Shown here: one piece after another, positions 6,985 to 48,793 of the stretch | How positions within the stretch are numbered: position 1 is the first letter of the stretch | Layout of the letters: every line of letters begins with the position of its first letter | Assembly (NCBI GenBank): GCA_951406725.2 | Contig: OX597842.1 | Coordinates: 15,934,001 to 15,998,000 of the forward strand | Direction of reading: 5' to 3' | Length of the DNA: 64,000 bases | Source of the DNA: Octopus vulgaris | Taxonomy: Eukaryota | Made by a program: the position numbers and the translations under genes | The notes under the pieces: generated by a model | Told to the model about the DNA's origin: nothing | Database searches by the model: none | The model's input: only the letters and a program-made list of their open reading frames with translations

Positions 6985-7353
6985 CGGCGGTTCTTAACCT
7001 GAGTCGTGTTGTAACAAAACAAAAATAAAAGGCAAATGTTAAAATGTTAAAATATAGGCAAATGTTAAAGCTACAATTCAGAAATAAGTGAGAGTTTTGA
7101 AGGATATGAAGAGGGGTCAGCAATTACAGAAATGGTGAGTGGCACTAAGATAGTAGAATAAGAAAACTAAGTGTATTAGGCGATAATTTCTCATTTTTTC
7201 CATAAACTTGTCATTATTTGACCATGATCTCGTTAAGAAAATAACACATATAATTAGAGTAAATCCCACTTTTTCGCAAGCGGTCGCACTCCCTTCAGAG
7301 TTACTGACGCACCCCCTGCCCCAGGGGTCGCGCTCCGAGGTTAAGAACCACTG
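6985..7353. mobile_element. hAT/Charlie-type MITE
   Basis: Terminal inverted repeats CGGCGGTTCTTAACCT (6985) and AGGTTAAGAACCACTG (to 7353), resembling Charlie CAGTGGTTCT ends. Confidence 0.65.
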
Positions 7354-7738
7354 ATCCCGAGGTAAACAACGTACATGATATAGACACTGAATTACACACT
7401 AATTTTTATACACTCCCATTCACTCATCCATACACTGAGACAGGTATTATATATAAACACAGGTATGCATTAACTATGCCTCCTCAAGTGTCACACTGAT
7501 ATATATATATATATATATACCACCTGTCAGAAATGCTACCACACTCACAGTCACAATCATTCGCATATATCTCCTATCTTAAAAGTGGACCCAGACTCAC
7601 ATTCACAAACATCCAAAACCAATAAAATGCATGTATAGAGAGACGGATGTAGACCTTAAATTGAAGTATGGAAAGACATTACGGATTTAGGAAGATATCT
7701 TCAGTGAAATAGTATAAAAGAAGATTGATTCAACTTAC

Positions 7739-7810
7739 AGAGTTTCTAAACTGGAGAGAGTTTGGAAAGTTGTTTCGTTGATTGCTTGGATATCGTTTTC
7801 AGCCAAATTC
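7739..7810 (-). CDS. LRR exon, type A (NLAENDIQAINETTFQTLSSLETL)
   Basis: 72 bp, ccag acceptor and gtaagtt donor, phase 2/2, typical 24-aa LRR. Confidence 0.9.
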
Positions 7811-8564
7811 CTGGAAATTAAAATTGTGTTAAAAACATTTATGGTAAGAAAGAGAATAAGATAATGAAGAAGTAGATAATGATGATGATGATGATGAAGA
7901 AGGAGCAGAAAAAGAAGAAGGAGAAGAAGAAAATAAAGAACAAGAAAAGAAGTAAAAGAAGAAGGGGAGGAGGAGGAAGAGGCGAGGGAGAAGAATAATA
8001 ATAAGAAGAAGAAAAAGAAGAGAATGAAGGAGAAGAGGAGCAACAAGTAGGAGATACTTCCAGAGAAGGAAACAAACACTAGTTGAGCGAAGTCCCTAAA
8101 TGGAAAAAAATGCATGAAAGACACCATCCAAGTACCTCCCCACAACACATACACACAACTATCTACTATAACACCAACATTACCAACGCCACCAGTATCG
8201 CTGCCAGCACCACCCGCCATACAAATATCCCCTTCGAAATCACCTTCGTAAATGTCCCTGCAATCCACATATTGAAGCCCTAATGAAATACATACATAAG
8301 ACTACCAACATCACACCAATAGATCACAGCACCTAACGCTTCACCTCAAATACAAATACTCAGCATAACTAACAACCCCTTAATTTCTTGAAACAAAATC
8401 TACCCCTTTGCGCTGGGAAATTTCCAAAGAACAATAACCAAAAGTTTTTACAAAACCTGATCGTGGAAACTCCTACAACCACCGAGAAGGGTGAGAGAGA
8501 CCATTCAACCTCGCCGCATCCCAAAATTAAGTTGTGCATCATTTTGTTTCTCTCATCATTGTTG

Positions 8565-9086
8565 TTCAAGCAAGGCAGTTTAAACGTGCGTGGACAGGGA
8601 TCAGTTTTCAAGTAAGGACGCTTTCTAAACGACCTCAGGTCACTGGATTTGGACGGTGTAGTCATTAGTGAAGCCAGACTGACCGGACCACAAGTTTTTT
8701 CTCTCCCCTCTATGGAGGATATGAGATGTAACGTTTCAGTGCCACCCGAGACAAGGCGATGAAACTGCAATTTGGTTCCAGAAAGGTCTAGATCTAGAGA
8801 TCAGTGTAGTCTTTGCGGACCCAGACGGCAATCTCGTCGTCCTTGATGTGAATGGTACTGATGGTGATGCTTTCAGACTGGTCGCTGTCTATGCACCAAC
8901 AAATGTTGGACAGTCAGATTATTTCAGGCGTCCGGAAGCTTTTTTGGGAATGTTGCGTAGTTTAGTATTAGTAGGTGATTTCACAGAATCCTAAGATGCA
9001 CGAATGGATTGTGAGGGGTCAAATGATAGAATTGGAAACAAATGCCTCACAAACCTGCTCAGACGTTTCCAGCTGTCTGAGAGGTA
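8565..9086 (+). mobile_element. Tx1/L1-like apurinic endonuclease fragment (repeated in each array unit)
   Basis: GSLNVRG..FLNDLRSLDLDGVVISEARL..FRLVAVYAPT..LVLVGDF, with stops. Confidence 0.8.
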
Positions 9087-9534
9087 TCGCGCTCCCTTCA
9101 GAGTTACTGACGCACCCCCTGCCCCAGGAGATGCGCTCCTAGGTGAAGAAGCACTGATCTCGAGGTAAACAACGTACATGATATAGACACTGAATTACAC
9201 ACTAATTTTTATACACTCCCATTCACGCATCCATACACCGAGACAGGTATTTATATATAAACACAGGTATGCATTAAATATGCCTCGTGAAGTGTCACAC
9301 TGATATATATATATACCAACTGTCAGAAATGCTACCACACTCACAGTCACAATCATTCGCATATATCTCCTATCTTAAAAGTGGATCCAGACTCACATTC
9401 ACAAACATCCCAAACCAATAAAATGCATGTATAGAGAGACGGATGTAGACCTTAAATTGAAGTATGGGAAGACATTACGCATTTAGGAAGATGTCTTCAG
9501 TGAAATAGTATAAAAGAAGATTGATTCAACTTAC

Positions 9535-9606
9535 AGATTTTCTAAACTGGAGAGATTTTGGAAAGTGTTTTCGTTGATTGCTTGGATATCGTTATAACTC
9601 AAATCC
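9535..9606 (-). CDS. LRR exon, type B (DLSYNDIQAINENTFQNLSSLENL)
   Basis: 72 bp, ccag/gtaagtt, phase 2/2. Confidence 0.9.
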
Positions 9607-11391
9607 CTGGTGAATAAAATTAAATCAAGAAGAACATTTATAGTAAGAAAAAGAAAAGGATGATGGAGAAGGAGTAGATATTGATGATGATGAAGAAGAA
9701 GAAGAAGAAGGAGAAGAAGAAAAAGAAGAAAGAGAAGAAGAAGAAGAAAAAGAAAAAGGAGAAGAAAAAGAAGTACAAGGAGAAGAAGAAGAAGAAGAAG
9801 AAGAAGAAGAAGAAGAGGGAGGCGGAAGCGAGGGAGAAGTAGAAGAAGAAGAAAAAGAAGAAGAAGAAGAAAAAGAAGAGAATGAAGGAGAAGAGGAGCA
9901 ACAAGTAGGAGATACTTCCAGAGAAGGAAACAAACACTAGTTGAGCGAAGTCCCTAATTGGAAAAAAATGCATGAAGAACACCATCCAAGCACCTCCCCA
10001 CAACACATACACACAACTATCTACTACAACACCAACATTACCAACACCACCAGTACCGCTGCCAGCAGCACCCGCCATACAAATATCCCCTTCGAAATCA
10101 CCTTCGTAAATTTCCCTGCAATCCACATATTGAAGCCCTAATGAAATACATACATAAGACTACCACCATCACACCAAAAGATCACAGCACCTAACGCTTC
10201 ACCTCAAATACAAATACTCAGCATAACTAACAACCCCTTAATTTCTTGAAACAAAATCTACCCCTTTGTGCTGGGAAATTTCCAAAGAACAATAACCAAA
10301 AGTTTTACAAAACCTGATCGTGGAAACTCCTACAACCACCGAGAAGGGTGAGAGAAACCATTCAACCTCGCCGCATCCCAAAATTAAGTTGTGCATCATT
10401 TTGTTTCTCTCATCATTGTTGTTCAAGCAAGGCAGTTTAAATGTGCGTGGACAGGGATCAGTTTTCAAGTAAGGACGCTTTCTAAACGACCTCAGGTCAC
10501 TGGATTTGGACGGTGTAGTCATTAGTGAAGCCAGACTGACCTGACCACAAGTTTTTTCTCTCCCCTCTATGGAGGATATGAGATGTAACGTTTCAGTGCC
10601 ACCCGAGACAAGGCGATGAAACTGCAATTTGGTTCCAGAAAGGTCTAGATCTAGAGATCAGTGTAGTCTTTGCGGACCCAGACGGCAATCTCGTCGTCCT
10701 TGATGTGAATGGTACTGATGGTGATGCTTTCAGACTGGTCGCTGTCTATGCACCAACAAATGTTGGACAGTCAGATTATTTCAGGCGTCCGGAAGCTTTT
10801 TTGGGAATGTTGCGTAGTTTAGTATTAGTAGGTGATTTCACAGAATCCTAAGATGCACGAATGGATTGTGAGGGGTCAAATGATAGAATTGGAAACAAAT
10901 GCCTCACAAACCTGCTCAGACGTTTCCAGCAGTCTGAGAGGTATCGCGCTCCCTTCAGAGTTACTGACGCACCCCCTGCCCCAGGGGATGCGCTCCTAGG
11001 TGAAGAAGCACTGATCTCGAGGTAAACAACGTACGTGATATAGACACTGAATTACACACTAATTTTTATACACTCCCATTCACGCATCCATACACCGAGA
11101 CAGGTATTTATATATAAACACAGGTATGCATTAAATATGCCTCGTGAAGTGTCACACTGATATATATATATACCAACTGTCAGAAATGCTACCACACTCA
11201 CAGTCACAATCATTCGCATATATCTCCTATCTTAAAAGTGGATCCAGACTCACATTCACAAACATCCAAAACCAATAAAATGCATGTATAGAGAGACGGA
11301 TGTAGACCTTAAATTGAAGTATGGGAAGACATTACGCATTTAGGAAGATATCTTCGGTGAAATAGTATAAAAGAAGATTGATTCAACTTAC

Positions 11392-11463
11392 AGATTTTCT
11401 AAACTGGAGAGATTTTGGAAAGTGTTTTCGTTGATTGCTTGGATATCGTTATAACTCAAATCC
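11392..11463 (-). CDS. LRR exon, type B
   Basis: 72 bp, intact splice sites. Confidence 0.9.
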
Positions 11464-13263
11464 CTGGTGAATAAAATTAAATCAAGAAGAACATTTATAG
11501 TAAGAAAAAGAAAAGGATGATGGAGAAGGAGTAGATATTGATGATGATGAAGAAGAAGAAGAAGAAGGAGAAGAAGAAAAAGAAGAAAGAGAAGAAGAAG
11601 AAGAAAAAGAAAAAGGAGAAGAAAAAGAAGTACAAGGAGAAGAAGAAGAAGAAGAAGAAGAAGAAGAAGAAGAAGAAGAAGAAGAAGAAGAGGGAGGCGG
11701 AAGCGAGGGAGAAGTAGAAGAAGTAGAAGGAGAAGAAGAAGAAAAAGAAGAGAATGAAGGAGAAGAGGAGCAACAAGTAGGAGATACTTCCAGAGAAGGA
11801 AACAAACACTAGTTGAGCGAAGTCCCTAATTGGAAAAAAATGCATGAAGGACACCATCCAAGCACCTCCCCACAACACATACACACAACTATCTACTATA
11901 ACACCAACATTACCAACACCACCAGTACCGCTGCCAGCAGCACCCGCCATACAAATATCCCCTTCGAAATCACCTTCGTAAATTTCCCTGCAATCCACAT
12001 ATTGAAGCCCTAATGAAATACATACATAAGACTACCACCATCACACCAAAAGATCACAGCACCTAACGCTTCACCTCAAATACAAATACTCAGCATAACT
12101 AACAACCCCTTAATTTCTTGAAACAAAATCTACCCCTTTGCGCTGGGAAATTTCCAAAGAACAATAACCAAAAGTTTTACAAAACCTGATCGTGGAAACT
12201 CCTACAACCACCGAGAAGGGTGAGAGAAACCATTCAACCTCGCCGCATCCCAAAATTAAGTTGTGCATCATTTTGTTTCTCTCATCATTGTTGTTCAAGC
12301 AAGGCAGTTTAAACGTGCGTGGACAGGGATCAGTTTTCAAGTAAGGACGCTTTCTAAACGACCTCAGGTCACTGGATTTGGACGGTGTAGTCATTAGTGA
12401 AGCCAGACTGACCGGACCACAAGTTTTTTCTCTCCCCTCTATGGAGGATATGAGATGTAACGTTTCAGTGCCACCCGAGACAAGGCGATGAAACTGCAAT
12501 TTGGTTCCAGAAAGGTCTAGATCTAGAGATCAGTGTAGTCTTTGCGGACCCAGACGGCAATCTCGTCGTCCTTGATGTGAATGGTACTGATGGTGATGCT
12601 TTCAGACTGGTCGCTGTCTATGCACCAACAAATGTTGGACAGTCAGATTATTTCAGGCGTCCGGAAGCTTTTTTGGGAATGTTGCGTAGTTTAGTATTAG
12701 TAGGTGATTTCACAGAATCCTAAGATGCACGAATGGATTGTGAGGGGTCAAATGATAGAATTGGAAACAAATGACTCACAAACCTGCTCAGACGTTTCCA
12801 GCAGTCTGAGAGGTATCGCGCTCCCTTCAGAGTTACTGACGCACCCTCTGCCCCAGCGGATGCGCTCCTAGGTGAAGAAGCACTGATCTCGAGGTAAACA
12901 ACGTACATGATATAGACACTGAATTACACACTAATTTTTATACACTCCCATTCACGCATCCATACACCGAGACAGGTATTTATATATAAACACAGGTATG
13001 CATTAAATATGCCTCGTGAAGTGTCACACTGATATATATATATACCAACTGTCAGAAATGCTACCACACTCACAGTCACAATCATTCGCATATATCTCCT
13101 ATCTTAAAAGTGGACCCAGACTCACATTCACAAACATCCAAAACCAATAAAATGCATGTATAGAGAGACGGATGTAGACCTTAAATTGAAGTATGGAAAG
13201 ACATTACGGATTTAGGAAGATATCTTCAGTGAAATAGTATAAAAGAAGATTGATTCAACTTAC

Positions 13264-13335
13264 AGAGTTTCTAAACTGGAGAGAGTTTGGAAAGTTGTTT
13301 CGTTGATTGCTTGGATATCGTTTTCAGCCAAATTC
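13264..13335 (-). CDS. LRR exon, type A
   Basis: 72 bp, intact splice sites, identical to 7739-7810. Confidence 0.9.
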
Positions 13336-15056
13336 CTGGAAATTAAAATTGTGTTAAAAACATTTATGGTAAGAAAGAGAATAAGATAATGAAGAAGTAG
13401 ATAATGATGATGATGATGATGAAGAAGGAGCAGAAAAAGAAGAAGGAGAAGAAGAAAATAAAGAACAAGAATAAGTAAAAGAAGAAGGGGAGGAGGAGGA
13501 AGAGGCGAGGGAGAAGAATAATAATAAGAAGAAGAAAAAGAAGAGAATGAAGGAGAAGAGGAGCAACAAGTAGGAGATACTTCCAGAGAAGGAAACAAAC
13601 ACTAGTTGAGCGAAGTCCCTAAATGGAAAAAAATGCATGAAAGACACCATCCAAGTACCTCCCCACAACACATACACACAACTATCTACTATAACACCAA
13701 CATTACCAACGCCACCAGTATCGCTGCCAGCACCACCCGCCATACAAATATCCCCTTCGAAATCACCTTCGTAAATGTCCCTGCAATCCACATATTGAAG
13801 CCCTAATGAAATACATACATAAGACTACCAACATCACACCAATAGATCACAGCACCTAACGCTTCACCTCAAATACAAATACTCAGCATAACTAACAACC
13901 CCTTAATTTCTTGAAACAAAATCTACCCCTTTGCGCTGGGAAATTTCCAAAGAACAATAACCAAAAGTTTTTACAAAACCTGATCGTGGAAACTCCTACA
14001 ACCACCGAGAAGGGTGAGAGAAACCATTCAACCTCGCCGCATCCCAAAATTAAGTTGTGCATCATTTTGTTTCTCTCATCATTGTTGTTCAAGCAAGGCA
14101 GTTTAAACGTGCGTGGACAGGGATCAGTTTTCAAGTAAGGACGCTTTCTAAACGACCTCAGGTCACTGGATTTGGACGGTGTAGTCATTAGTGAAGCCAG
14201 ACTGACCGGACCACAAGTTTTTTCTCTCCCCTCTATGGAGGATATGAGATGTAACGTTTCAGTGCCACCCGAGACAAGGCGATGAAACTGCAATTTGGTT
14301 CCAGAAAGGTCTAGATCTAGAGATCAGTGTAGTCTTTGCGGACCGAGACGGCAATCTCGTCGTCCTTGATGTGAATGGTACTGATGGTGATGCTTTCAGA
14401 CTGGTCGCTGTCTATGCACCAACAAATGTTGGACAGTCAGATTATTTCAGGCGTCCGGAAGCTTTTTGGGAATGTTGCGTAGTTTAGTATTAGTAGGTGA
14501 TTTCACAGAATCCTAAGATGCACGAATGGATTGTGAGGGGTCAAATGATAGAATTGGAAACAAATGCCTCACAAACCTGCTCAGACGTTTCCAGCTGTCT
14601 GAGAGGTATCGCGCTCCCTTCAGAGTTACTGACGCACCCCCTGCCCCAGGAGATGCGCTCCTAGGTGAAGAAGCACTGATCTCGAGGTAAACAACGTACA
14701 TGATATAGACACTGAATTACACACTAATTTTTATACACTCCCATTCACGCATCCATACACCGAGACAGGTATTTATATATAAACACAGGTATGCATTAAA
14801 TATGCCTCGTGAAGTGTCACACTGATATATATATATACCAACTGTCAGAAATGCTACCACACTCACAGTCACAATCATTCGCATATATCTCCTATCTTAA
14901 AAGTGGATCCAGACTCACATTCACAAACATCCCAAACCAATAAAATGCATGTATAGAGAGACGGATGTAGACCTTAAATTGAAGTATGGGAAGACATTAC
15001 GCATTTAGGAAGATGTCTTCAGTGAAATAGTATAAAAGAAGATTGATTCAACTTAC

Positions 15057-15128
15057 AGATTTTCTAAACTGGAGAGATTTTGGAAAGTGTTTTCGTTGAT
15101 TGCTTGGATATCGTTATAACTCAAATCC
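15057..15128 (-). CDS. LRR exon, type B
   Basis: 72 bp, intact splice sites. Confidence 0.9.
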
Positions 15129-16915
15129 CTGGTGAATAAAATTAAATCAAGAAGAACATTTATAGTAAGAAAAAGAAAAGGATGATGGAGAAGGAGTAGA
15201 TATTGATGATGATGAAGAAGAAGAAGAAGAAGGAGAAGAAGAAAAAAAGAAGAAAGAGAAGAAGAAGAAGAAAAAGAAAAAGGAGAAGAAAAAGAAGTAC
15301 AAGGAGAAGAAGAAGAAGAAGAAGAAGAAGAAGAAGAAGAGGGAGGCGGAAGCGAGGGAGAAGTAGAAGAAGAAGAAAAAGAAGAAGAAGAAGAAAAAGA
15401 AGAGAATGAAGGAGAAGAGGAGCAACAAGTAGGAGATACTTCCAGAGAAGGAAACAAACACTAGTTGAGCGAAGTCCCTAATTGGAAAAAAATGCATGAA
15501 GGACACCATCCAAGCACCTCCCCACAACACATACACACAACTATCTACTACAACACCAACATTACCAACACCACCAGTACCGCTGCCAGCAGCACCCGCC
15601 ATACAAATATCCCCTTCGAAATCACCTTCGTAAATTTCCCTGCAATCCACATATTGAAGCCCTAATGAAATACATACATAAGACTACCACCATCACACCA
15701 AAAGATCACAGCACCTAACGCTTCACCTCAAATACAAATACTCAGCATAACTAACAACCCCTTAATTTCTTGAAACAAAATCTACCCCTTTGCGCTGGGA
15801 AATTTCCAAAGAACAATAACCAAAAGTTTTACAAAACCTGATCGTGGAAACTCCTACAACCACCGAGAAGGGTGAGAGAAACCATTCAACCTCGCCGCAT
15901 CCCAAAATTAAGTTGTGCATCATTTTGTTTCTCTCATCATTGTTGTTCAAGCAAGGCAGTTTAAACGTGCGTGGACAGGGATCAGTTTTCAGGTAAGGAC
16001 GCTTTCTAAACGACCTCAGGTCACTGGATTTGGACGGTGTAGTCATTAGTGAAGCCAGACTGACCTGACCACAAGTTTTTTCTCTCCCCTCTATGGAGGA
16101 TATGAGATGTAACGTTTCAGTGCCACCCGAGACAAGGCGATGAAACTGCAATTTGGTTCCAGAAAGGTCTAGATCTAGAGATCAGTGTAGTCTTTGCGGA
16201 CCCAGACGGCAATCTCGTCGTCCTTGATGTGAATGGTACTGATGGTGATGCTTTCAGACTGGTCGCTGTCTATGCACCAACAAATGTTGGACAGTCAGAT
16301 TATTTCAGGCGTCCGGAAGCTTTTTTGGGAATGTTGCGTAGTTTAGTATTAGTAGGTGATTTCACAGAATCCTAAGATGCACGAATGGATTGTGAGGGGT
16401 CAAATGATAGAATTGGAAACAAATGCCTCACAAACCTGCTCAGACGTTTCCAGCAGTCTGAGAGGTATCGCGCTCCCTTCAGAGTTACTGACGCACCCCC
16501 TGCCCCAGGGGATGCGCTCCTAGGTGAAGAAGCACTGATCTCGAGGTAAACAACGTACGTGATATAGACACTGAATTACACACTAATTTTTATACACTCC
16601 CATTCACGCATCCATACACCGAGACAGGTATTTATATATAAACACAGGTATGCATTAAATATGCCTCGTGAAGTGTCACACTGATATATATATATACCAA
16701 CTGTCAGAAATGCTACCACACTCACAGTCACAATCATTCGCATATATCTCCTATCTTAAAAGTGGATCCAGACTCACATTCACAAACATCCAAAACCAAT
16801 AAAATGCATGTATAGAGAGACGGATGTAGACCTTAAATTGAAGTATGGGAAGACTTTACGCATTTAGGAAGATATCTTCGGTGAAATAGTATAAAAGAAG
16901 ATTGATTCAACTTAT

Positions 16916-16987
16916 AGATTTTCTAAACTGGAGAGATTTTGGAAAGTGTTTTCGTTGATTGCTTGGATATCGTTATAACTCAAATCC
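16916..16987 (-). pseudogene. LRR exon type B with inactivated splice donor (GT>AT)
   Basis: Plus strand reads caacttaT at 16915 versus caacttaC in all other copies. Confidence 0.75.
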
Positions 16988-18786
16988 CTGGTGAATAAAA
17001 TTAAATCAAGAAGAACATTTATAGTAAGAAAAAGAAAAGGATGATGGAGAAGGAGTAGATATTGATGATGATGAAGAAGAAGAAGAAGAAGGAGAAGAAG
17101 AAGAAGAAGAAAGAGAAGAAGAAGAAGAAAAAGAAAAAGGAGAAGTAAAAGAAGTACAAGGAGAAGAAGAAGAAGAAGAAGAAGAAGAAGAAGAAGAAGA
17201 AGAAGAAGAAGAAGAAGGGAGGCGGAAGCGAGGGAGAAGTAGAAGAAGTAGAAGAAGAAGAAGAAGAAAAAGAAGAGAATGAAGGAGAAGAGGAGCAACA
17301 AGTAGGAGATACTTCCAGAGAAGGAAACAAACACTAGTTGAGCGAAGTCCCTAATTGGAAAAAAATGCATGAAGGACACCATCCAAGCACCTCCCCACAA
17401 CACATACACACAACTATCTACTATAACACCAACATTACCAACACCACCAGTACCGCTGCCAGCAGCACCCGCCATACAAATATCCCCTTCGAAATCACCT
17501 TCGTAAATTTCCCTGCAATCCACATATTGAAGCCCTAATGAAATACATACATAAGACTACCACCATCACACCAAAAGATCACAGCACCTAACGCTTCACC
17601 TCAAATACAAATACTCAGCATAACTAACAACCCCTTAATTTCTTGAAACAAAATCTACCCCTTTGCGCTGGGAAATTTCCAAAGAACAATAACCAAAAGT
17701 TTTACAAAACCTGATCGTGGAAACTCCTACAACCACCGAGAAGGGTGAGAGAAACCATTCAACCTCGCCGCATCCCAAAATTAAGTTGTGCATCATTTTG
17801 TTTCTCTCATCATTGTTGTTCAAGCAAGGCAGTTTAAACGTGCGTGGACAGGGATCAGTTTTCAAGTAAGGACGCTTTCTAAACGACCTCAGGTCACTGG
17901 ATTTGGACGGTGTAGTCATTAGTGAAGCCAGACTGACCGGACCACAAGTTTTTTCTCCCCTCTATGGAGGATATGAGATGTAACGTTTCAGTGCCACCCG
18001 AGACAAGGCGATGAAACTGCAATTTGGTTCCAGAAAGGTCTAGATCTAGAGATCAGTGTAGTCTTTGCGGACCCAGACGGCAATCTCGTCGTCCTTGATG
18101 TGAATGGTACTGATGGTGATGCTTTCAGACTGGTCGCTGTCTATGCACCAACAAATGTTGGACAGTCAGATTATTTCAGGCGTCCGGAAGCTTTTTTGGG
18201 AATGTTGCGTAGTTTAGTATTAGTAGGTGATTTCACAGAATCCTAAGATGCACGAATGGATTGTGAGGGGTCAAATGATAGAATTGGAAACAAATGACTC
18301 ACAAACCTGCTCAGACGTTTCCAGCAGTCTGAGAGGTATCGCGCTCCCTTCAGAGTTACTGACGCACCCTCTGCCCCAGCGGATGCGCTCCTAGGTGAAG
18401 AAGCACTGATCTCGAGGTAAACAACGTACATGATATAGACACTGAATTACACACTAATTTTTATACACTCCCATTCACGCATCCATACACCGAGACAGGT
18501 ATTTATATATAAACACAGGTATGCATTAAATATGCCTCGTGAAGTGTCACACTGATATATATATATACCAACTGTCAGAAATGCTACCACACTCACAGTC
18601 ACAATCATTCGCATATATCTCCTATCTTAAAAGTGGATCCAGACTCACATTCACAAACATCCCAAACCAATAAAATGCATGTATAGAGAGACGGATGTAG
18701 ACCTTAAATTGAAGTATGGGAAGACATTACGCATTTAGGAAGATGTCTTCAGTGAAATAGTATAAAAGAAGATTGATTCAACTTAC

Positions 18787-18858
18787 AGATTTTCTAAACT
18801 GGAGAGATTTTGGAAAGTGTTTTCGTTGATTGCTTGGATATCGTTATAACTCAAATCC
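18787..18858 (-). CDS. LRR exon, type B (first LRR exon in transcript order)
   Basis: 72 bp, intact splice sites. Confidence 0.9.
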
Positions 18859-20774
18859 CTGGTGAATAAAATTAAATCAAGAAGAACATTTATAGTAAGA
18901 AAAAGAAAAGGATGATGGAGAAGGAGTAGATATTGATGATGATGAAGAAGAAGAAGAAGGAGAAGAAGAAAAAGAAGAAAGAGAAGAAGAAGAAGAAAAA
19001 GAAAAAAGAGAAGAAAAAGAAGTACAAGGAGAAGAAGAAGAAGAAGAAGAAGAAGAAGAAGAATAAGAAGAAGAGGGAGGCGGAAGCGAGGGAGAAGTAG
19101 AAGAAGTAGAAGAAGAAGAAGAAGAAAAAGAAGAGAATGAAGGAGAAGAGGAGCAACAAGTAGGAGATACTTCCAGAGAAGGAAACAAACACTAGTTGAG
19201 CGAAGTCCCTAATTGGAAAAAAATGCATGAAGGACACCATCCAAGCACCTCCCCACAACACATACACACAACTATCTACTATAACACCAACATTACCAAC
19301 ACCACCAGTACCGCTGCCAGCAGCACCCGCCATACAAATATCCCCTTCGAAATCACCTTCGTAAATTTCCCTGCAATCCACATATTGAAGCCCTAATGAA
19401 ATACATACATAAGACTACCACCATCACACCAAAAGATCACAGCACCTAACGCTTCACCTCAAATACAAATACTCAGCATAACTAACAACCCCTTAATTTC
19501 TTGAAACAAAATCTACCCCTTTGCGCTGGGAAATTTCCAAAGAACAATAACCAAAAGTTTTACAAAACCTGATCGTGGAAACTCCTACAACCACCGAGAA
19601 GGGTGAGAGAAACCATTCAACCTCGCCGCATCCCAAAATTAAGTTGTGCATCATTTTGTTTCTCTCATCATTGTTGTTCAAGCAAGGCAGTTTAAACGTG
19701 CGTGGACAGGGATCAGTTTTCAAGTAAGGACGCTTTCTAAACGACCTCAGGTCACTGGATTTGGACGGTGTAGTCATTAGTGAAGCCAGACTGACCGGAC
19801 CACAAGTTTTCTCTCCCCTCTATGGAGGATATGAGATTTAACGTTTCAGTGGCACACGAGACAAAGCGATGAAACTGCAATTTGGTTCCAGAAAGGTCTA
19901 GATCTAGAGATCAGTGTAGTCTTTGCGGACCCAGACGGCAATCTCGTCGTCCTTGATGTGAATGGTACTGATGGTGATGCTTTCAGACTGGTCGCTGTCT
20001 ATGCACCAACAAATGTTGGACAGTCAGATTATTTCAGGCGTCCGGAAGCTTTTTTGGGAATGTTGCGTAGTTTAGTATTAGTAGGTGATTTCACAGAATC
20101 CTAAGATGCACGAATGGATTGTGAGGGGTCAAATGATAGAATTGGAAACAAATGCCTCACAAACCTGCTCAGACGTGTAGTCGGTGTAGTCATTAGTGAA
20201 GCCAGACTGACCGGACAACAAGTTTTTTCTCGCCCCTCTATGGAGGATATGAGATGTAACGTTTCAGTGCCACCCGAGACAAGGCGATGAAACTGCAATT
20301 TGGTTTCAGAAAGGTCTAGATCTAGAGATCAGTGTAGTCTTTGCGGAACCATACGGCAATCTCGTCGTCCTTGATGTGAATGGTACTGATGGTGATGCTT
20401 TCAAACTGGTCGCTGTCTATGCACCAACAAATGTTGGACAGTCAGATTATTTCAGGCGTCCGGAAGCTTCTTTGGGAATGTTGCGTAGTTTAGTATTAGT
20501 AGGCGATTTCACAGAATCCTAAGATGCACGAATGGATTGTGAGGGGTCAAATGATAGAAGTGGAAACAAATGCCTCACAAATCTGCTCAGACGTTTCCAG
20601 CTGTCTGACGGTTATCGCGCTCCCTTCAGAGTTACTGACGCACCCCCTGCCCCAGGGGAATCGCTCCTAGGTGAAGAAGCACTGATCTCGAGGTAAACAA
20701 CGTACATGATATAGACACTGAATTACACACTAATTTTTATACACTCCCATTCACTCATCCATACACTGAGACAT

Positions 20775-20830
20775 ATATGATTCAACTTCCTGGAGAATAA
20801 AATTGTGTTAAGAACATTTATGGTAAGAAA
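20775..20830 (-). other. Empty cassette: LRR exon deleted, flanks fused
   Basis: gattcaactt joined directly to cctggagaataaaattgtgtt. Confidence 0.85.
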
Positions 20831-22779
20831 AAGAAAAAGATGATGGAGAAGAAGTAGATAATGATGATGATGAAGAAGAAGAAGAAGAAGAAGAAGAAGA
20901 AGAAGAAGAAGACGACGAAGAAGAAGAAAAAGAAGAAAAAGAAGAAGGAGAAGAAGGAGGAGGAGGCGAGGGAGAAGAAGAAGAAGAAGAAGAGGAAGAT
21001 AAAGAACAAGAAGAAGGGAAAGAGGGAGAAGAGGAGAAACAAGTAGGAGATACTTCCAGAGAAGGAAACAAACACTAGTTGAGCGAAGTCCCTAAATGGA
21101 AAAACTGCCCTAAAGACACCATCCAAGCACCTCCTCACGACACATACACACAACTATCTTCTATAACACCAACATTACGAACACCACCAATACCGCTGCC
21201 AGCACCACCCGCCATACAAATATCCCCTTCGAAATCACCTTCGTAAATTTCCCTGCAATCCACATATTGAAGCCCTAATGAAATACATACAAAAAACTAC
21301 CAACATCACACCAAAAGATCACAGCACCTAACGCTTCACCTCAAATATAAATACTCAGCATAGCTAACAACGCCTTAATTTCTTGAAAAGAAATCTACCC
21401 CTTGGCGCTGGGAAATTTCCAAAGAACAATAACCAAAGTTTTATACAAAACCTGATCGTGGAAACTCCTACAACCACCGAGAAGGGTGAGAGAAACCATT
21501 CACCCTCGCAGCAGCCCCAAAACTAAGTTGTGCATCATTTTGTTTTCCCATTTCTCTCATCATTGTTTTGCTCAAGCAAGGCAGTTTAAACGTGCGTGGA
21601 CAGGGATCATGTTTCAAGTAAGGACGCTTTCTAAACAACCTCGGGTCACTGGATTTGGACGGTGTAGTCATTAGTGAAGCCAAACTGACCGGACCACAAG
21701 TTTTTTCTCGCAGCTCTTTGGAGGATACGAGATCTAACGATTCAGTGGCACCCGAGACAAGGCGAGGGAACTGCAAGTTGGTTCCAGATTTTTCTTGTGT
21801 GTCCAAACATGTATAATTTATGTTAAATATTTAAATCTACAAAAGGGAACCTGCTTTAAGGGGGTGGGTTCCAGGAATATACATATCGCCCTTTGGGGAA
21901 GAATTTCTATCCTCTTTTGTGTACTGTGAGTTTGATTTATAGCACTAATTTTTTTTATTCTTCTAAACGTTACCTCTCGCCCTGGAAAAGGAAACACCCC
22001 ATCCCCCCCAAAGTAAAATTAGGAAAAATATTTCTTCCACTTCTGCAATGCGAACAAGAGGTAACATGTAAAAAGTATCGGCAAATGAAATCACGACGGA
22101 GAATATTTCGAACGTCACTACAGTCAGTAAATCACTTGATACTAGCGAGATAAAGAAACAAATTCGACAGTCACGGTTTCTCTTCCGTACCAAAACTCTA
22201 CCAAGAAACGCTCAACATAAATATGGATGATTTTTAAAATATCAAATATCCAATCAAAAGAAAAGGAACAAATTTCACATTGACCCCCGCCCTCGGTTAT
22301 ATCACACAACCCACTTCATGTAGAGCTGTCACCTACAAAAAGCTAATTTCAAATGACGAAGTCCACAGGGACTCTACAGACAGTAGTTCTCCTGCCGACC
22401 AACTTCGGTCGGCGAGTTCCAACGATAAAAATTGAGGAGGTTCCTCCAGAATTTCACATCTTTTGGGAAATAGCATCCGCGTTACTCGACATCAAAGAAG
22501 ATAAAAAAGATAAATAAACGAAATACACCAACAGAATTGGTGGGCAGCAGGAAGGGAAGATTTTGATATATATGGCCAAAACGCAGCATGGACTTCACGG
22601 AATTCCTTGCTGGCCTTCCACGACTCTTGGCGATAAAAGCCACAGAAGTATGGGATAACTTTGCTGGCTGCACGGTGTGCAAGTCGTCGGTTGTGGATAG
22701 TATTTCGTATGAAAGTTATTATAGTATGCATGCCAGACCTGTTTGAATGCATTTTGGCAGATATCTAGGGCAACTGGTA

Positions 22780-24290
22780 CCGGAATAGGAAAATTCCTAA
22801 CGCTGTGAGCCTAGGTTTGTGGTACTGCTAAAAGAAGACCCAAACAAGGAGGTTGTAATTAATAACTTTAGACCCGTCACTCTGCTAAATGCAGATTTAA
22901 AGATGCTCACTCTTCTCTCTACTTTATGTATTGAGTCTGGAACCATTACTGCAGAAACTGGAGGCCTTGAGGAGCATGTCGTATGAACTAGGGTGCAGGA
23001 GATCTGTCTCGTCATATGCGGATGATGTCACCATCATAGTTTTGAATGACAACCACTTGCACTTTTTTGTTTATGTCGGAAAAGAATAGGTGGTGATAGG
23101 AACAGAAGTAAACCCAGAATTGTCGGTCGGCCTGCAAACTTGGCACCTGGAGAGGCAGATTGATGACGTCTAGCTACGTCGTCTGACGATTGACGAACGG
23201 CTCAGTGAAATTTGCTCGGCGTCTGATTCGGTCCGAACGTCCAGGTAGAGAAGAACTGGGACGATGTAGCGGACAGGGTAGCCAATAACACCCAGAAATG
23301 GACTGAAAAAAAGATCTCGCTGAAAGGACGGGCAGAAGTGTCGAATATATACATCGCATCCGTCATCTTCTACCTCCTGGCCGTCGTTCCGTGCCTTAAT
23401 TCGTGCCTGAACAAACTGGAACAGTTACTTTTGCGCTTACTGTGGAAGGAACCCGGCCCGCTGGCCAGGCGCTCTATCTACTGCCAACAGTCACTGAATG
23501 GAGGGCTGGGAATGCCGTGGCTAAAGATGCGCAGACATGTGCTGAGGCTGCGACATCTCCAGCTTTACCTTGAAGATGAGTAGATGTAGTCACCCTTTCT
23601 CAGACTCGCTTTCCCACAGGTCGTCTCTTTCGACGAGCAGAACCCATGGATCAGTGGAGGCTCCACCTTGGCTTTCTATGGACATTTAGTAGCTAATATG
23701 TGCGATGTTATTCTCAGGGAGACTGCGTCGACGATAATAACTCGTTAGTCTGTTCTGGAGGATTTTCATGGATAACAACCATAAATTCCTGGCCTGACGG
23801 TGCTACCGGAGGGCACTACTAGTTGATATAAACTACACAGGCACAAAAGTCGGACCAGCCCCTGATGCAAACCAAGTGTTGAGACTTTTCTACACGCGCT
23901 CGTCCAGTGCCTAAAATTATCTGAATTCTGGTTCATGTTGAATACCGTTTTCCTTTAACCGGGAAAGGCGGGCAGTTTTTCTCTGTCTAGTGGATATCGC
24001 ACTGGAAGGATGGGTAAACATTGCATGAATAAATGAGTCTGACTCGAGCATAAATATCTAGGCATTTGGTCCTAATTATGAGGTTGTTTCGTGGCTTGTG
24101 GGGTTTCCACGACCAACTCAGGAAACCTCCACCTTTTGGGGAATTACTGTTGCTGAATATTTCTACATAATTTTTTTTTATCTTTTACTATTGTTAATTT
24201 TTTTGTACACGACTTTCATGTATGTCCCCACCCGTATGTCCTGTACTGTTCCTCTATGTTGAGCTCTCAATGGCTAAGAACAAACGAATT
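22780..24290 (+). mobile_element. Degenerate Tx1/L1-like LINE reverse transcriptase region
   Basis: NNFRPVTLLNADLKMLT, SYADDVTI, ISLKGRAEVSNIYIASVIFY..LWK..GGLGMP. Confidence 0.8.
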
Positions 24291-24299
24291 TCTTGCAGA

Positions 24300-26270
24300 A
24301 CGGACTTGCTAATTTACGGTCGTGAGGTTTTAATTTTCACTTTCACAAACTTTGTGAATATTTTGGACCTTTTAAGTCTTTAAAACTGAACCTACTTGAC
24401 AGGGGAAGTTTCTTTGACCGTATAAATTCGCCGTTTTGGGGGCGAACCTCAATCTGGATTTCAATCGTGTATTGATTTAACTTTAAAACACAAACATGGC
24501 CTCCGGCTACGCAGAAAGCAACGACCTCCACCCACCAAATTTGGCAGTACGAAGGAATGTTTCCCACTCTTCCTTGTCACAAACAAGAAGAAATTAAAAT
24601 TTTGCAAATAAAAACACGAGCAACACCACATAGACAAGTTTCCAATGCCACCGCTACCACCACCAGTAACAGAATTGAACCCAGCGAAGAAAATAAGCAA
24701 AATAAATGCAACAGTCGCAGTTTCGCCGCTGTCGTGAAAGTCAATCAAGAGACAATATAAACGTTGGCAATTTACAGAAATATAAATGATCAATACAAAG
24801 AACCGGTAGAAATGTCTTATTACCCCCCCCCCCCCCCGTTGATATTATAGAAAAACCAGTTCGCAAACCTTAGTCCTACAAGACTCTAACGATGAAAATA
24901 ACTGAACAGGCTACAAAGGAAAAAGTTGGAAAATGTTTGCAACCAGTCTAGAACAAGATCGCATACATGGCAAGGGGAAGAACATATGACCCTATCGAAG
25001 TGAGGTCCACCACGGAAGACGAAGCAAGGCAATACCCCACAGTACCTCTAAAGACCGAGGAACAAGTGCTCTTACCGACTTACCTTGGTCGGTGATTTTA
25101 CAAAATAAAAATTGGTTAATTACCCCCAGAATTCGACATTTTTGGTTAGTGGCGTCCGTCCTAATTGACAATGAAGTTAAAGTTGAGATTCTTCAAATAC
25201 ACAAGTTACACTATCATAATTGGTGGGGTCAAGGATCTTAGCTGTTAATTCAAGCGGACTATCAAACGCTCGGAATAATACCAGATCTCATCCACTTACC
25301 GGAAGGCGCAAAGCTGGATTTATCGGCGGAGGGTCGTAAACCAATTTGCTATCTCTGCGGCAGAGGGACCACCCCAGAACCTTTTTCCCGGAGGGATCAG
25401 ATGGGAAACTTATCCTTCCACCAAAAGCATTATCACAGCAACACCAACAGTAGCAGAGGTAAACTACAGTAGAAGCAACACCACCTCCACCCAAAACAAC
25501 AACGTCAACACAATGTATAGAAAATACAAAAAAAATAATAGAAGAGAAAACAACAACGAAAAACAAACCAGAAAGAGCAACAGTAACCGCAACAGCAACA
25601 TCACCAATGGGAAGAATAGCAAACACAGCAAAAGCAACAGGACTGGCTGTGGAAAACACAGCAGAAACCACAACAACGGAACAAAAGAAAAATCAACAAC
25701 AAAAAAATCTCAAAAATAAATCCTAAAAGGAACACCAAGAGAGACCGACCCAAGAGAGTTATCCCTTCTCGAGTTTGATTTGGAAATATGCAAAAACATA
25801 AAAACGGACAGAGTGGAAAGAAGTTCCACAAAGAAAGAAGACGAAAGATGGACACTACCACAGCACCTCTTCACAACAGAGACACTATCACACAACCTCT
25901 ACCCATAACACCCACATTACCAACTCCACCAATACCACTCCCAGCATCACACACAGAACAGAAACCAACATTAGAAAGCATAATGAACCTTACTGAAATA
26001 AACACAAAAAATACACATACAATAACACAGCGACGACATTACCGCAAGAAATGTTCTTTGTGCACCACCCAAAGGACCACTACACATAAAGATCCTCAGC
26101 GTTTCAAATAACACGTTCATTGACATACAAGAAAGGTATCCCAATGCGGTGGGCAAATTTCAGAAAACTATAAGTAAAACTCTTCACATAAATCTGACCG
26201 TGAAAGAAGCCACAACCAGCCTGAGGAGTGAGAAAACCACTCACCCTCCCTTCAGCCAAAACAGTAAGTA
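24300..26270 (+). mobile_element. Degenerate LINE ORF1-like region (Tx1-like family)
   Basis: SFAAVVK, LLPTYLGR, NWWGQG, PICYLCG knuckle; 3' part resembles the ORF1 end inside the array units. Confidence 0.55.
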
Positions 26271-26394
26271 GTTTTCGTTTTTGGGCGGGGTATAAATGTT
26301 GCAAGAAGACCTCGAATGAATGGTTCTGACTTGAACATAATTGCTGACAGTAGAATTGAGCATTGATTGTTGCATTAGGTGGTAACAATTCAAA

Positions 26395-28270
26395 GTCAAT
26401 TACTCCCTATACGTGGGCAGCAGCGCCACCTTGTCCGACTACAGAATAGTGGTAGAATGTGAGGCCACTTCTTCTTTGGTGTGCAAAACTCACTTCCACC
26501 CTGCTGTACTTCTTTCCTCTCATCACAAATGTCGCTTGTTTTCATAATGGCTGCCAAACCTTCTCCAATATCGTCTTCCGTTAATATTGCTATTTTGTTG
26601 GTTGCAACCGCTTGTGTGCGGTGCACCACCGTTCTATTACTCTTCTCGTTCACTCTTTCTTCCGGAGGGACCAGCTTGATTGTGTCTTCCTCTCTCTCTG
26701 CACAAACGTTTTGCTACTTATAGTATTGTCCATCTTTATTTTCATCTGCTTTGCTTCCAGCGACGCAGCTGCTTCCACTGAAGTGGTTTTCGCATAGTTT
26801 TCCATGATGAAAAGCTAATATTTTCACACCCAAAATAGAGAGAAAATAGCAAAAAACAACAACTCCAAACAAAATCACGCACGATCGCTTCAACAACAAA
26901 TTTTAACAGTAAAAATAACAATATACTCAACAGTCTCAAAAAAGTCAACCTTTCTCAATCACACCGTGGTCACAATTGACTAACTCGAGCAAATTTCATC
27001 ACCAACTGACCTCATTTTTTGTTACCCATACAGGCTACATAAAAGTGCCTTACAATTCAAAAAGACAATACAAAACAAACACGGGGAACTAAAAATTACA
27101 AAAACGAAATTGAGTAAAGAAGAAAAAGAAAAGAAACGAATGAAATTATGAAAGAATGATAAAAATGGAGCGCAATGACCACTCGAACTTGAAGTCGAGT
27201 GATTACATTTTTTTTTTTACGGTTTTTCCCAATTTTTTGACCAAAATGTTCACATCCCCGTCATCTTTTTTTTTTATACTATTTATATCACCATTCTTGT
27301 TAGTTCTTAATACTCCCTGCAGATGGCGGAGCATCACGCAACTATATCCTGTCCACCATACTTACCGATCCACCGAATGTATCCACAAATCTATCAAACC
27401 TTTCGTCTTGCACCACAGTTCCTCTATCATGTCCGCCAAACTCCTCTCTCGATAACTTCGCCCTCATGGCATTAGCTCTATATCTTCAATTGTGGCACAA
27501 AACTACATCCTGACCCCGAATCCCCACCAGTTTAACATTTTTCTGTCTCCTATCAGTCCCAGTTCCGGATTGACTTCAGTGGCAGCCAGAATAGTTTCCA
27601 CCAACCACTCTATTTTGATTTCCGGTGGCACTCACTCTACTCTGATTCGAACACTGCGCCTTCCCCTATACGCGGGTAACAGTGCTACATTGCTCGACCT
27701 AAAAATGGTGGTGGAATGTGAGGCCGCCTCTTCTTTGGTAGCAAACTTCGTCTCCTTGGTGCCGTATCTTCTTCCTCTGCTAATAAAAGTAGCCTTGTTC
27801 GTTATGTTTCCTAGTCACTCCTCAATATCTTCCTCTGACAATTTTTCTATCTTGCTGGTGACGACCGCTTCTGTGCGATACTCTACCGTCCTGTCACTCT
27901 TATCTTTCACTGTCTCCTGCGGAGGGCCCAGCTTGATAGTGTCTCCTTCCTTCTGCACAAGTTGTTCACTTTTTAAAATTTGTTCCATGTCACCTTTTAT
28001 TTGCCTTGCTTCTAACAGAATAGCTCTTTTCGCCGCAGCCGTCTTTGCATAGCTTTCTATGCTGGAAAAGCTAAGTTATGTTTTCTCACCCACAATGGAG
28101 AGAAAAAGAGCAAAAAACAATAATAGTAGCAAATACCAAATACGCGTAGGTCGCTTCAACAATAATAAATCCAACACTAATATCAACAGGAAGTCTTGAA
28201 AACACAAAACTTCCTCTATCGTACTGTGGTCAAAGATGACTAATTCAAACAACTCTCATCCGCCGGCTGA
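26395..28270 (-). mobile_element. Two minus-strand copies (about 26395-27015 and 27440-28270) of a related ORF1-like 5' region
   Basis: Mutually similar; PAYRGRR..VPPEI..WLV..NWWGFG parallels 25070-25240. Confidence 0.5.
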
Positions 28271-28824
28271 CCTCTGCCACGCGTTCCATCACTCATTTGA
28301 ATTGTCCGCCTCTCAGTAAAAGCGTACAAAAGAACGTTTAACATGCTTTAAATCAGCCGCACGATCCACGAACATTATTTCTCATTAGATTGACTTATAG
28401 ATCCGTCGCTGGTTTTCTACAGTAGAACTAGAGAACAGTATTTCGATTAGTACCATTTAGAATTATATTTATCAGAATATGTTTCCATTTTATACTCTCC
28501 TTCATAACAACAATACTTGCAACACGTTATGCTAACAGTTTTCCTACTCGCCGTTCCCTGAATATTTCCATAATGAGTGTTGATGTAATAAACTAGCATC
28601 ATCAAAGTTCAGATATTGTAAATTATAGATTCCATTTCAGTCAGCATGTACAATGGACCAGTCTATCTGACTTCACAGCAGTTAACATATTTGCCCTTTT
28701 TACTCCAACATAAGATCACGTTTTAAAGCTGAGATCAAAAACATAATGTATTAGTTAAGAACATAACCAACGGGAATTTAAAGCATTGAATGTGGAAACT
28801 ATATAGAAATGGTCTAATACTTAC

Positions 28825-29006
28825 AAATATTCAACATTCGGTGGAATGGGTTGCGGGATCGAAGTGAGTTGCCGAGATGAACAATCTATATTTGTCTCAG
28901 AATTTCGACAGCTACATATTGAGCAAATGTCTGATGCAGCATGAGACTCCAAAGAGAAACTCATAGAGAGTATCAACACAAACGTCAATTTCAATTGTTG
29001 GAACAT
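28825..29006 (-). CDS. First coding exon of LRR gene: signal peptide + LRRNT cap
   Basis: MFQQLKLTFVLILSMSFSLESHA-ASDICSICSCRNSETNIDCSSRQLTSIPQPIPPNVEYL; acceptor ttttacag at 29027, donor gtaagt at 28824, phase 2 matching the LRR exons. Confidence 0.92.
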
Positions 29007-29276
29007 ATTTTCAGGCGTTGATTAATCTGTAAAAGAAGAAAATACAAAATACCAGAAACTTCAATGTCAATTCTTTCCCATTGCAAATTCTTCGTAGGAC
29101 AAGATTTGGCCCCTGTTCCATGAGATGACTTTATCTTTGATTTCACTTTCAGTTTAATATTTAAACTTACGAAACTGAATTCAATGATAATTCAATGTGG
29201 TGAACATAAATCATTGAGAGATAACGTCGAAGATAAACTGAACATCAGTCGCCCCTGCATACACATGCACACACAA

Positions 29277-29313
<37 letters not shown>

Positions 29314-29879
29314 TACACACACTATTATATGTGTGTGAGTGCATGTGCATGTGTTTGATGTTCTTTCGGTTTTCTTTGTTTTCCTTTCCATCAACATTTC
29401 GTCTCTCTTCAGATTCCATGGAGATATTTTGTGGAGGTGCAACACCTAATAACTCCCTATCAATAGCCTCACACTCACCTTTCTACCCCCAATTAAAGGA
29501 AACCGAAGCGACCTCTGTTGATAACACCACAACCACAACGACGCCATGAACGGTTGAGGGCCCCTACGCCACAATATCGGCGCCAGAATTGTTTGCTCAG
29601 TGCTTCCACGGAAGAGCAAGCTCTTCCCAACTTGCCTGCTACCCAAACCAACAACAACGACGCCACGAACGGCTGAGGACCCCAACATCTCAACATCGGC
29701 ACTGGAAATGTTTGCTCTCTGCTTCCTCGGAAGAGCAAGCTCTTCCCAATTTTGCCTGCTCTCCAAACAAACAACAATGCACTAATTTATTTTTCGACCA
29801 AACCTCATCATCTAACACTGATTCCTTGGTTGTGGTGATGGTGGTGATGATGGTGGTGGTGGTCGTCGTCGTGGTTGTC

Positions 29880-32462: not shown

Positions 32463-32819
32463 CCAGGAACTTAATTCTCCAGCAAAATGCACAACAAGTT
32501 TTTCGATGACTGCTCACGAGGAACCCATAAAGATAATGATAAATAATGTCTATTTATAGGGGGTGACGCGGGATTGGTTGAAAGTAGGAGAAATTGTCCG
32601 TTTAAAAAGTTCAAGGGTTGAATCAAGGTAGGAGAAGGAAGGAATAGGACAATTAAAGTGAGGGAATGTATTCTGTATGACTGGTGTTTATATTTGATTT
32701 ATTTCATGAATGAGTGCTCGTATGTATGAGTGTGTAAAATTGCCTTAATGTGTGTGTGTGTGCATCTTTGAATGCGTGAATGTGTGTGTGGAAGGCAGAG
32801 AGAAAGAGATAGCAAGAAT

Positions 32820-35426: not shown

Positions 35427-35500
35427 CTGAGAAGAAAGGCAATATTCGGCTGGTCATTTTCTAAAAATATTGATCTGATGGTTAGTTTCGCTACTTTAAT
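35427..35500 (-). other. Candidate non-coding first exon of the LRR gene
   Basis: Perfect CAG|GTAAGT donor at 35426 in unique sequence; the ATG exon has an acceptor, so an upstream exon is needed; 5' boundary unknown. Confidence 0.35.
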
Positions 35501-35530
35501 AAAAAATTAGAAATTAAAGTAATGCATTGA

Positions 35531-45073: not shown

Positions 45074-45504
45074 AAATGAAATAATTACTCATACCCATAG
45101 AAAAAGCAAGCACTAATCCTGAGCAGACCTAAGTACCCCAAATATATCCAAAATAGGAAAACTTCAGCACATCTCGAGACACGTGTGATTCGATCTAGAA
45201 ACTTTCACAGAGTAAGAGAATCCGGAAGTGAACACTATTAAATTTATAACTTTTTTTCGTAAAAAATTTTTTTTCAAAGGCCAGCATATCAAAAAATACC
45301 TTTAAAGGTTAAATTTATAAATAACTTAGTTATAAATTTAATAGTGTTCACATCCGGATTCTCTGACTCTGTGAGAGTTTCTAGATCTAATCACACGTGT
45401 CTCGAGATGTGCTGTAGATTTTCTATTTTGGATATTTTTGGGGTACTTAGGTCTGCTCAGGATCCAGTGTTGCTTTTCCATGGATATGAGTAAGTATTTC
45501 ATTT
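45074..45504. mobile_element. Fold-back MITE with ~180-bp inverted arms
   Basis: 45074-45250 is the imperfect reverse complement of 45329-45504. Confidence 0.75.

Positions 45505-47501: not shown

Positions 47502-47535
<34 letters not shown>

Positions 47536-48762: not shown

Positions 48763-48793
<31 letters not shown>

Follow-up and report, generated by a model that had tools for sequence, protein, structure and literature searches.

A truncated octopus locus with a tandem array of single-LRR exons, probably derived from a family of LRR-bearing adhesion GPCRs

The variable lymphocyte receptors (VLRs) of lampreys are assembled somatically from cassettes and end in an LRRCT domain and a stalk. 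ADGRA and LGR genes carry fixed numbers of leucine-rich repeats (LRRs), LGRs use a rhodopsin-type seven-transmembrane (7TM) domain, and ADGRG6 has CUB-PTX rather than LRRs. Phase-2 exons that each encode one LRR have been reported for gonadotropin receptors in the excerpts of the literature at hand. Group 3 of the octopus adhesion G-protein-coupled receptors (GPCRs), according to the available passages of PMC6408891, has ADGRG6/GPR126 as its nearest relative, a GPS and an adhesion 7TM domain, LRRs in some members, tandem clusters and positive selection at branch level; the octopus expansion, its LRR content and the branch-level selection are already published there. The family described here resembles group 3 in these features, the nearest listed sequences of group 3 being GPR126/ADGRG6 and LRR_8 occurring in both, a comparison made by listed annotations. 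Here we analyse a stretch of 64,000 nucleotides from Octopus vulgaris (contig OX597842.1, called C29 below, positions 15934001-15998000; hereafter the window), which carries on its minus strand a locus with one exon for a signal peptide and LRRNT cap and a tandem array of exons each encoding a single LRR.

In our reading the locus is a copy, about 98% identical, of the 5′ end of an octopus gene for an LRR-bearing adhesion GPCR, without the GAIN and membrane exons in the assembly. Its array likely arose by unequal crossover, and this process likely diversifies the whole family as receptors for non-self recognition. We give this reading a probability of roughly 0.6. Its interest is earned by the family and not by the truncated window copy. 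The features of the locus, in window positions, are as follows.

35427-35530, minus strand: likely upstream leader exon; 3′ end at 35427 (CAG/GT), 5′ start approximate.
28825-29026, minus strand: exon 1, signal peptide and LRRNT; ATG at 29006, ends in phase 2.
20780-21790, minus strand: degenerate eighth unit; acceptor retained (AG at 20790), exon deleted.
18787-18858, minus strand: LRR exon of type B, AG/GT.
16916-16987, minus strand: LRR exon of type B, donor AT, likely skipped; its twin at 11392 has GT.
15057-15128, minus strand: LRR exon of type B, AG/GT.
13264-13335, minus strand: LRR exon of type A, AG/GT.
11392-11463, minus strand: LRR exon of type B, AG/GT.
9535-9606, minus strand: LRR exon of type B, AG/GT.
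7739-7810, minus strand: LRR exon of type A, AG/GT; the next exon is at C29:15932360-15932431.
7284-20176, no strand given: tandem array of seven exon-plus-intron units of 1.79-1.87 kb each, with a three-unit higher-order repeat of about 5.52 kb.
17828-18330, plus strand: decayed fragment of a long interspersed nuclear element (LINE), endonuclease start, as an example from one unit; antisense to the gene and duplicated along with the units.

Exon 1, the first main coding exon, spans 202 bp bounded by AG and GT and holds 60 codons and 2 nt; the Pfam matches to LRRNT in homologues are weak, below the curated cut-off. A sequence-only reading of the window had proposed this exon, followed by seven 72-bp phase-2 exons in units of about 1.85 kb. 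The arrangement holds, with one exon in each unit of 1793-1872 bp. However, both splice sites are intact in only six of the seven array exons, since exon 16916 has AT in place of the donor GT, and the seven exons encode only two peptides: five identical copies of type B (DLSYND) and two of type A (NLAEND). The two exon types differ at 9 of 72 nt; B units differ from one another by 4-17 substitutions and from A units by 70-86. Within the higher-order repeat, 7284-12808 and 12809-18331 are separated by 27 substitutions: the initial 500 bases, which lie at the edge of the array, account for 15 of these, and the remaining 5.0 kb or so for 12. Each array unit holds a decayed LINE piece on the opposite strand, as shown for one of them (17828-18330), which has 57-58% amino acid identity to ORF2 (open reading frame 2) of a nearby full LINE bearing RVT_1 and Exo_endo_phos. 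A scan of both strands for splice-bounded LRR patterns gave 12 candidates, among which the only 72-bp ones reading as LRRs were the six array exons with an intact donor. The locus has one more LRR exon outside the window, 1.6 kb to its left (C29:15932360-15932431), which brings its total to eight. The leader exon, located by a looser local search, carries a short upstream ORF that stops just past the splice; its peptide matches the N-terminus of the paralogue protein P0004, and an 84% copy lies upstream of the next paralogue. A 5′ leader seen as a loose end of RNA-like contigs was not found in the window or in the surrounding sequence examined.

Exon 1 identifies the family. Its search returned nine proteins among 13 candidates, and eight of the nine are named Octopus proteins, two of them called adhesion GPCR G6-like and bearing 7tm_2 or GPS, in agreement with the cephalopod setting suggested earlier from the letters. 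It is 92% identical to Octopus proteins P0001-P0004, of which P0004 is named adhesion GPCR G6-like and has 7tm_2, and 85% identical to P0006, which has GPS. A search with one protein matching exon 1 retrieved 42 proteins, mostly named adhesion GPCR G6-like. Full members (P0012 and P0013) have LRR_8, GPS and 7tm_2 above the Pfam cut-offs, together with weak matches to HRM and GAIN, and a family profile compared with solved structures found its best relatives in ADGRG2 and ADGRG6. After the LRRs the family order is Cys-rich, GAIN, GPS and 7TM exons; the Cys-rich and α/β domains between LRRCT and GAIN might be Ly6-like and SEA-like. The genome holds at least 40 matches to exon 1 (40 of 48 candidates scored) and 63 to the exon for transmembrane helices 5-7 (TM5-7), of which 47 are full-length and stop-free with E ≤ 6.4e-20. 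By these predicted domains the parent family is an octopus expansion of LRR-bearing, ADGRG-like adhesion GPCRs. Further clusters of exon 1 and TM5-7 matches are seen on C30 at 15-20 Mb, on C31 at 1-11 Mb and on C8, C9, C10 and C26.

Lamprey VLRs, Toll/Slit and LGR ectodomains had been offered as the architecture on the sequence-only reading, and this assignment gives way to an adhesion GPCR with 7tm_2 and GPS, nearest to ADGRG2 and ADGRG6. For a Toll-like receptor, no TIR domain was present in P0003, P0004, P0006, P0012 or P0013, and TIR accessions appeared only on P0049, the weakest of the 42 proteins and one not named from octopus. For an LGR or glycoprotein hormone receptor, P0004, P0012 and P0013 have 7tm_2 and not the rhodopsin-type 7tm_1. 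In contrast to the intronless cassettes of a VLR, the repeats are AG/GT exons that family RNA-like contigs join at exon ends, and the family runs on into Cys-rich, GAIN, GPS and 7TM exons, not into LRRCT and an invariant stalk. Mutually exclusive splicing of the Dscam type was likewise rejected, as the P0051 and P0003 models carry consecutive repeats and isoforms drop one at a time.

The window locus itself ends early. C-terminal exons had been expected to the left of the window; instead a single LRR exon is followed by 206 kb, from C29:15932360 to exon 1 of the next paralogue (15726042), in which the exon profile found no LRR, LRRCT, GAIN, GPS or transmembrane exon. A search of 40 family proteins against the same 206 kb gave no family exon, only a LINE, and none of the 47 full-length TM5-7 matches falls between C29:15.327 and 16.068 Mb. 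With no GAIN/GPS exon in the 206 kb and no TM5-7 match, the window locus is thus a family-derived fragment and not a member receptor. Its sister gene lies 2 Mb away at C29:13.98 Mb and retains an LRRCT exon and a TM5-7 exon (C29:13837223). Upstream of the array the two loci align at 98.2% along 10.4 kb, and downstream of it at 97.6% along 8.4 kb. Opposite the 13 kb of the window array the sister has a 950-bp inverted piece and half an exon: an inversion-deletion at C29:13969094-13970043 took the 5′ half of its first LRR exon. The exon 1 peptide of the sister is identical to that of O. sinensis P0003; at the position of the array the P0003 model carries just one exon, of NLAEND type. Compared with the sister, exon 1 of the window locus differs at 16 of 113 nt in the LRRNT half (some synonymous), at 0 of 89 in the signal part and at 8 of 500 in the flanks, from which we infer that the LRRNT half may be a conversion patch. 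Homology to the sister and to a second paralogue stops inside a LINE (C29:15927592 and 15925920).

The break could also be an assembly fault or an uncollapsed haplotype. The locus would then belong to a complete receptor or be an allele of the sister, and the array would be a copy-number polymorphism in one animal. Low divergence from the sister leaves room for a haplotype or join error, substitutions relative to the two nearest paralogues being mostly 0.2-2% per kb. Moreover, a palindrome lies just past the break (C29:15895937-15927613), with arms of about 15.6 kb less than 1% apart and a 370-bp microsatellite at its centre; it would be the product of a very recent inverted duplication or of a fold-back in the assembly, and given its position the 3′ junction may have been misassembled. 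At C29:13.12 Mb, a paralogue that has the 3′ half but lacks exon 1 within 98 kb overlaps the window locus by 7.3 kb at 97.4%. Against this, there is no N in the 458 kb assembled around the locus, its upstream flanks match those of the sister at only 88-96%, and the upstream neighbours are different paralogues. In 30 kb upstream of the sister no leader exon was found, and substitutions set the array units apart, among them the donor change in one twin. We consider a fault or haplotype unlikely.

Past the break the assembly also holds, left of the window, two identical copies of a 246-codon exon for a very acidic (D/E-rich) protein with a signal peptide, one on the plus strand and the inverted copy at C29:15907062 (minus strand). 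A search with this ORF gave no Pfam match and no longer homologue.

All coding exons of the window locus are open and the leader exon is retained, and these facts would fit a functional gene that encodes a secreted decoy or a chimera. The transcript would either read through into the last intron, ending in Leu-stop, or be spliced to a downstream acceptor, examples being the minus copy of the acidic ORF, 25 kb from the locus, and, at a distance of 214 kb, the LRR exons of the next paralogue. In 194 of 205 intact family exons, reading on past an unspliced donor meets a stop at once, AATAAA occurs 1152 and 1819 bases past the last exon of the locus, and the acidic ORF has an upstream AG in phase 2, in frame with the LRR exons. 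Functional adhesion GPCR forms lacking the 7TM are described for Drosophila Cirl in the available passages of PMC13197933. On the other hand, an in-frame acceptor is expected by chance in 1/3 of cases, and one donor of the array is already lost. The window locus has no LRRCT cap, which LRR solenoids of such type usually need. Contigs from runs presumed to be RNA leave exon 1 at its donor and carry on into LRR exons; the type of the last exon (YLNGNN) is joined in such contigs to an SLSSND exon, which other paralogues have but which does not follow the window locus. A decoy or chimera is quite unlikely, and the window copy is most likely a decaying by-product; at best, it would give a short secreted solenoid without a C-cap. 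DNA depth summed over the unit mixes paralogues and so gives no copy number.

The arrays of the family were surveyed with a DNA profile at 13 loci on C29, of roughly 50, picked for closeness to the window locus. By the filters applied, the 242 LRR-exon matches comprise 211 intact and 31 broken exons; 205 of the 211 intact ones are 72 bp long, and these encode 165 distinct peptides. The totals per locus are 4, 8 (the window locus), 9, 11, 12, 12, 13, 14, 17, 23, 31, 38 and 50, and the last rises to 58. Intact and broken exons range from 3/1 to 42/8 per locus, and the largest locus stands at 47/11 after eight more matches. This locus (C29:14074205-14226404) has its 58 matches in nested multi-exon repeats, together with LRRCT and TM5-7 exons; no exon 1 was found in the 66 kb upstream of it. 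Copies of the 1.85 kb unit of the window, 89-92% identical to it, occur in six paralogue regions; the next gene has nine of them. Paralogous arrays, proposed earlier as a check, are thus present at all 13 loci, with 4-58 single-LRR exons each, and the family has the make-up of an exon-shuffled LRR repertoire: one LRR per symmetric phase-2 exon, a variable number of them, and units common to different genes. As each LRR sits on its own 72-bp phase-2 exon, units can be gained, lost, moved between genes or skipped in frame. Although 108 of 180 nearest neighbours lie in another gene, this count, inflated by whole-gene duplicates, is not taken to prove shuffling.

Gene models suggest skipping. The O. 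bimaculoides models X2, X3 and X4 (P0050, P0052 and P0016) each lack one different 24-amino-acid repeat of X1 (P0051), with 593 against 617 amino acids, and in O. sinensis P0001 and P0002 (models X2 and X3) are each shorter than P0003 (X1) by one repeat. The proposal that the solenoid works as an accordion is therefore borne out for the family, by arrays of 4-58 exons at 13 loci, isoforms with single repeats lost and the selection described below, and is unsupported for the window locus itself. Existing gene models miss most of the family LRR exons (the model of P0006 uses about 4 of the 17 found in its gene), which may explain why the architecture went unremarked. Partial genes are common: searches over 66 and 98 kb at two loci found no exon 1. 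In the next paralogue, with 23 LRR exons, TM1 is frameshifted at C29:15553387-15553542 and no further transmembrane exons follow; P0006, from another paralogue, ends at the same residues, which suggests a shared 7TM-less subfamily.

To measure divergence, intact 72-bp exons were paired by flanking-intron identity alone, each exon being used once. With introns within 5% this gave 82 disjoint pairs; outside the comparison lie the other 41 of the 205 exons, the six intact 69-bp exons and the 31 broken ones. At codons 1, 3, 4, 22 and 23, the five non-framework codons of the xxLxLxx strand, the proportion of non-synonymous differences (pN) was 0.160 (154/964), compared with 0.028 (33/1174) for synonymous differences (pS) and 0.018 (392/21465) for introns, so that these concave-face codons change about six times faster than synonymous sites. 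Other variable codons gave 0.025 and framework codons 0.007. Fisher's test gave p = 1e-27 against all synonymous sites and 1e-8 against those of the same codons. The excess is present in 51 within-gene pairs and in 63 between-gene pairs alike, and the concave set ranks first among the 4368 possible sets of five codons. In 200 random disjoint pairings within 10%, the means were 0.226 against a pS of 0.050. The strand assignment follows the available passages of PMC5395774 and an AlphaFold model of P0013, poor overall (mean pLDDT 49.8), whose strand at residues 27-31 takes in three of the five positions. Hypermutability at exon junctions was rejected as a cause of the signal: neither the adjoining intron bases nor the final two bases of the exon show a rise. 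The codons of the concave face are thus, as far as such counts of substitutions can tell, under diversifying selection.

This pattern bears on what the arrays are for. If repeat turnover were neutral, symmetric exons would simply tolerate growth and shrinkage of the array with no adaptive meaning. The copies in the window, identical in protein and in a locus without its 3′ half, agree with this; the family contradicts it, since its non-synonymous change falls in five codons only, at about six times pS, with framework codons at 0.007. Neutral turnover is adequate for the newest window copies and, as an account of the whole, highly improbable. A fixed self function could leave the same selection signature if diversification served to escape a receptor-binding pathogen, with extra repeats and truncated copies acting as decoys, and truncated and 7TM-less copies are indeed common in the cluster. 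Nevertheless, 4-58 repeats over dozens of genes exceed what escape at one binding site would need, and we regard this explanation as very unlikely.

A serious rival is a code for neural cell recognition that complements the protocadherins, in which variable LRR faces would label cells of the arm nerve cord and suckers and bind self ligands. The available passages of PMC6408891 report group 3 expression in axial nerve cord, sucker and skin and propose a neural role, those of PMC13197933 describe vertebrate adhesion GPCRs as guiding wiring, and isoforms that skip exons could give combinatorial labels. However, a pN/pS near 6 on the binding face of near-identical copies, broken exons and partial genes fit an arms race better, and in the second species the top tissue is the gill (PMC6408891, same passages). 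We judge a neural code improbable as the main function. Non-self recognition is favoured because the selection pattern resembles an arms race and because group 3 is expressed in gill, skin, sucker and nerve cord; an immune, sensory or non-self recognition function of the family is inferred from these.

Under the favoured reading, homologous introns and LINE fragments would drive misaligned recombination, with unequal crossover and conversion. One or two units would have been amplified to eight in the window locus, the last step probably being the three-unit duplication, and recombination inside the intronic LINE may have cut off its 3′ half. Intact members would use the concave face for ligand binding and pass the signal to G proteins by way of GAIN/7TM, the ligands most likely being microbes or other foreign surfaces at gill, skin and sucker. 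A wider version is more tentative and rather less likely than not: a VLR-like germline repertoire wired to G-protein signalling, in which about 50 adhesion GPCR genes have LRR solenoids rebuilt by gain, loss and exchange of exons, a binding face tuned by selection, multiplication by exon skipping, and secreted or 7TM-less decoys such as the window locus, all serving to recognise microbes or foreign surfaces at gill, skin and suckers.

Besides the palindrome and the low divergence from the sister, several points weigh against the favoured reading. The site test in PMC6408891 found, in the passages available, no positively selected sites, and that paper favours a neural adhesion role. Our counting method leaves recombination, gene conversion and relatedness among pairs unmodelled, and as pairs were picked on low intron divergence the intron figure is biased down, pS being the fair control. 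The three closest pairs of the window itself show zero change, so its array adds length and not variety. Many family exons are broken (31 of 242), and no TM5-7 match was found behind three other loci that have exon 1. The isoforms are database gene models from two other octopus species; in four runs all contigs over position 28954 carried the paralogue base and none that of the window locus.

A region of the window at 47993-63645 consists of older non-coding duplications in three partial copies of 84-88% identity, also present upstream of the sister gene; in the part that was read (47200-55500) no coding exon was seen. At 45500-47250 the plus strand is a 1.75 kb near-pure pyrimidine tract. Decayed LINE and DNA transposon fragments lie on both strands at 100-1800, 21800-28300 and 32800-35000, and a 119-bp tandem pair at 29530-29777.

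A search of the open literature, judged mostly by titles and abstracts, brought up nothing published on arrays of single-LRR exons or on selection at the concave face in the adhesion GPCRs of cephalopods; the passages of PMC9795677 at hand contain neither 'leucine' nor 'LRR'. In the available passages of PMC6408891, group 3 has LRRs in 5 of 22 sequences and no selected sites, and these passages give no arrays of one LRR per exon, no range of 4-58 and no exon exchange; the window locus, moreover, is without the GPS or 7TM of group 3. In its GAIN/GPS and 7tm_2 parts the family is closest to ADGRG2 and ADGRG6. For the question of how long-lived invertebrates such as octopuses recognise varied microbes and surfaces without antibodies, an LRR face of variable length, under strong site-specific selection and coupled to a signalling GPCR, is a concrete and testable candidate. 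The window copy matters mainly as a snapshot of amplification and truncation.

Like lamprey VLRs, as described in the available passages of PMC5395774, the family combines a signal peptide, an LRRNT, a variable number of LRRs and variability at the concave xxLxLxx; unlike them, its repeats are germline spliced exons ahead of GAIN/7TM. The phase-2 single-LRR exon arrays of Tetrahymena (PMC6564038, in the passages available) resemble it in their 1-51 exons per gene, ectopic recombination and LINE-like elements beside the units, but they encode 30-amino-acid repeats in thousands of genes of a ciliate and have no GPCR module. The brown algal ROCO genes (PMC11378527, in the passages available) share 72-bp phase-2 exons that each hold one LRR. 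Their exons are shuffled and alternatively spliced, their concave face is under positive selection, and a role as immune receptors has been proposed for them. They encode LRR-ROC-COR GTPases, whereas the octopus family places extracellular LRRs on a GAIN/7TM receptor, and the signalling parts are not homologous. The exon-cassette strategy of brown algae and ciliates is thus shown here in an animal membrane receptor.

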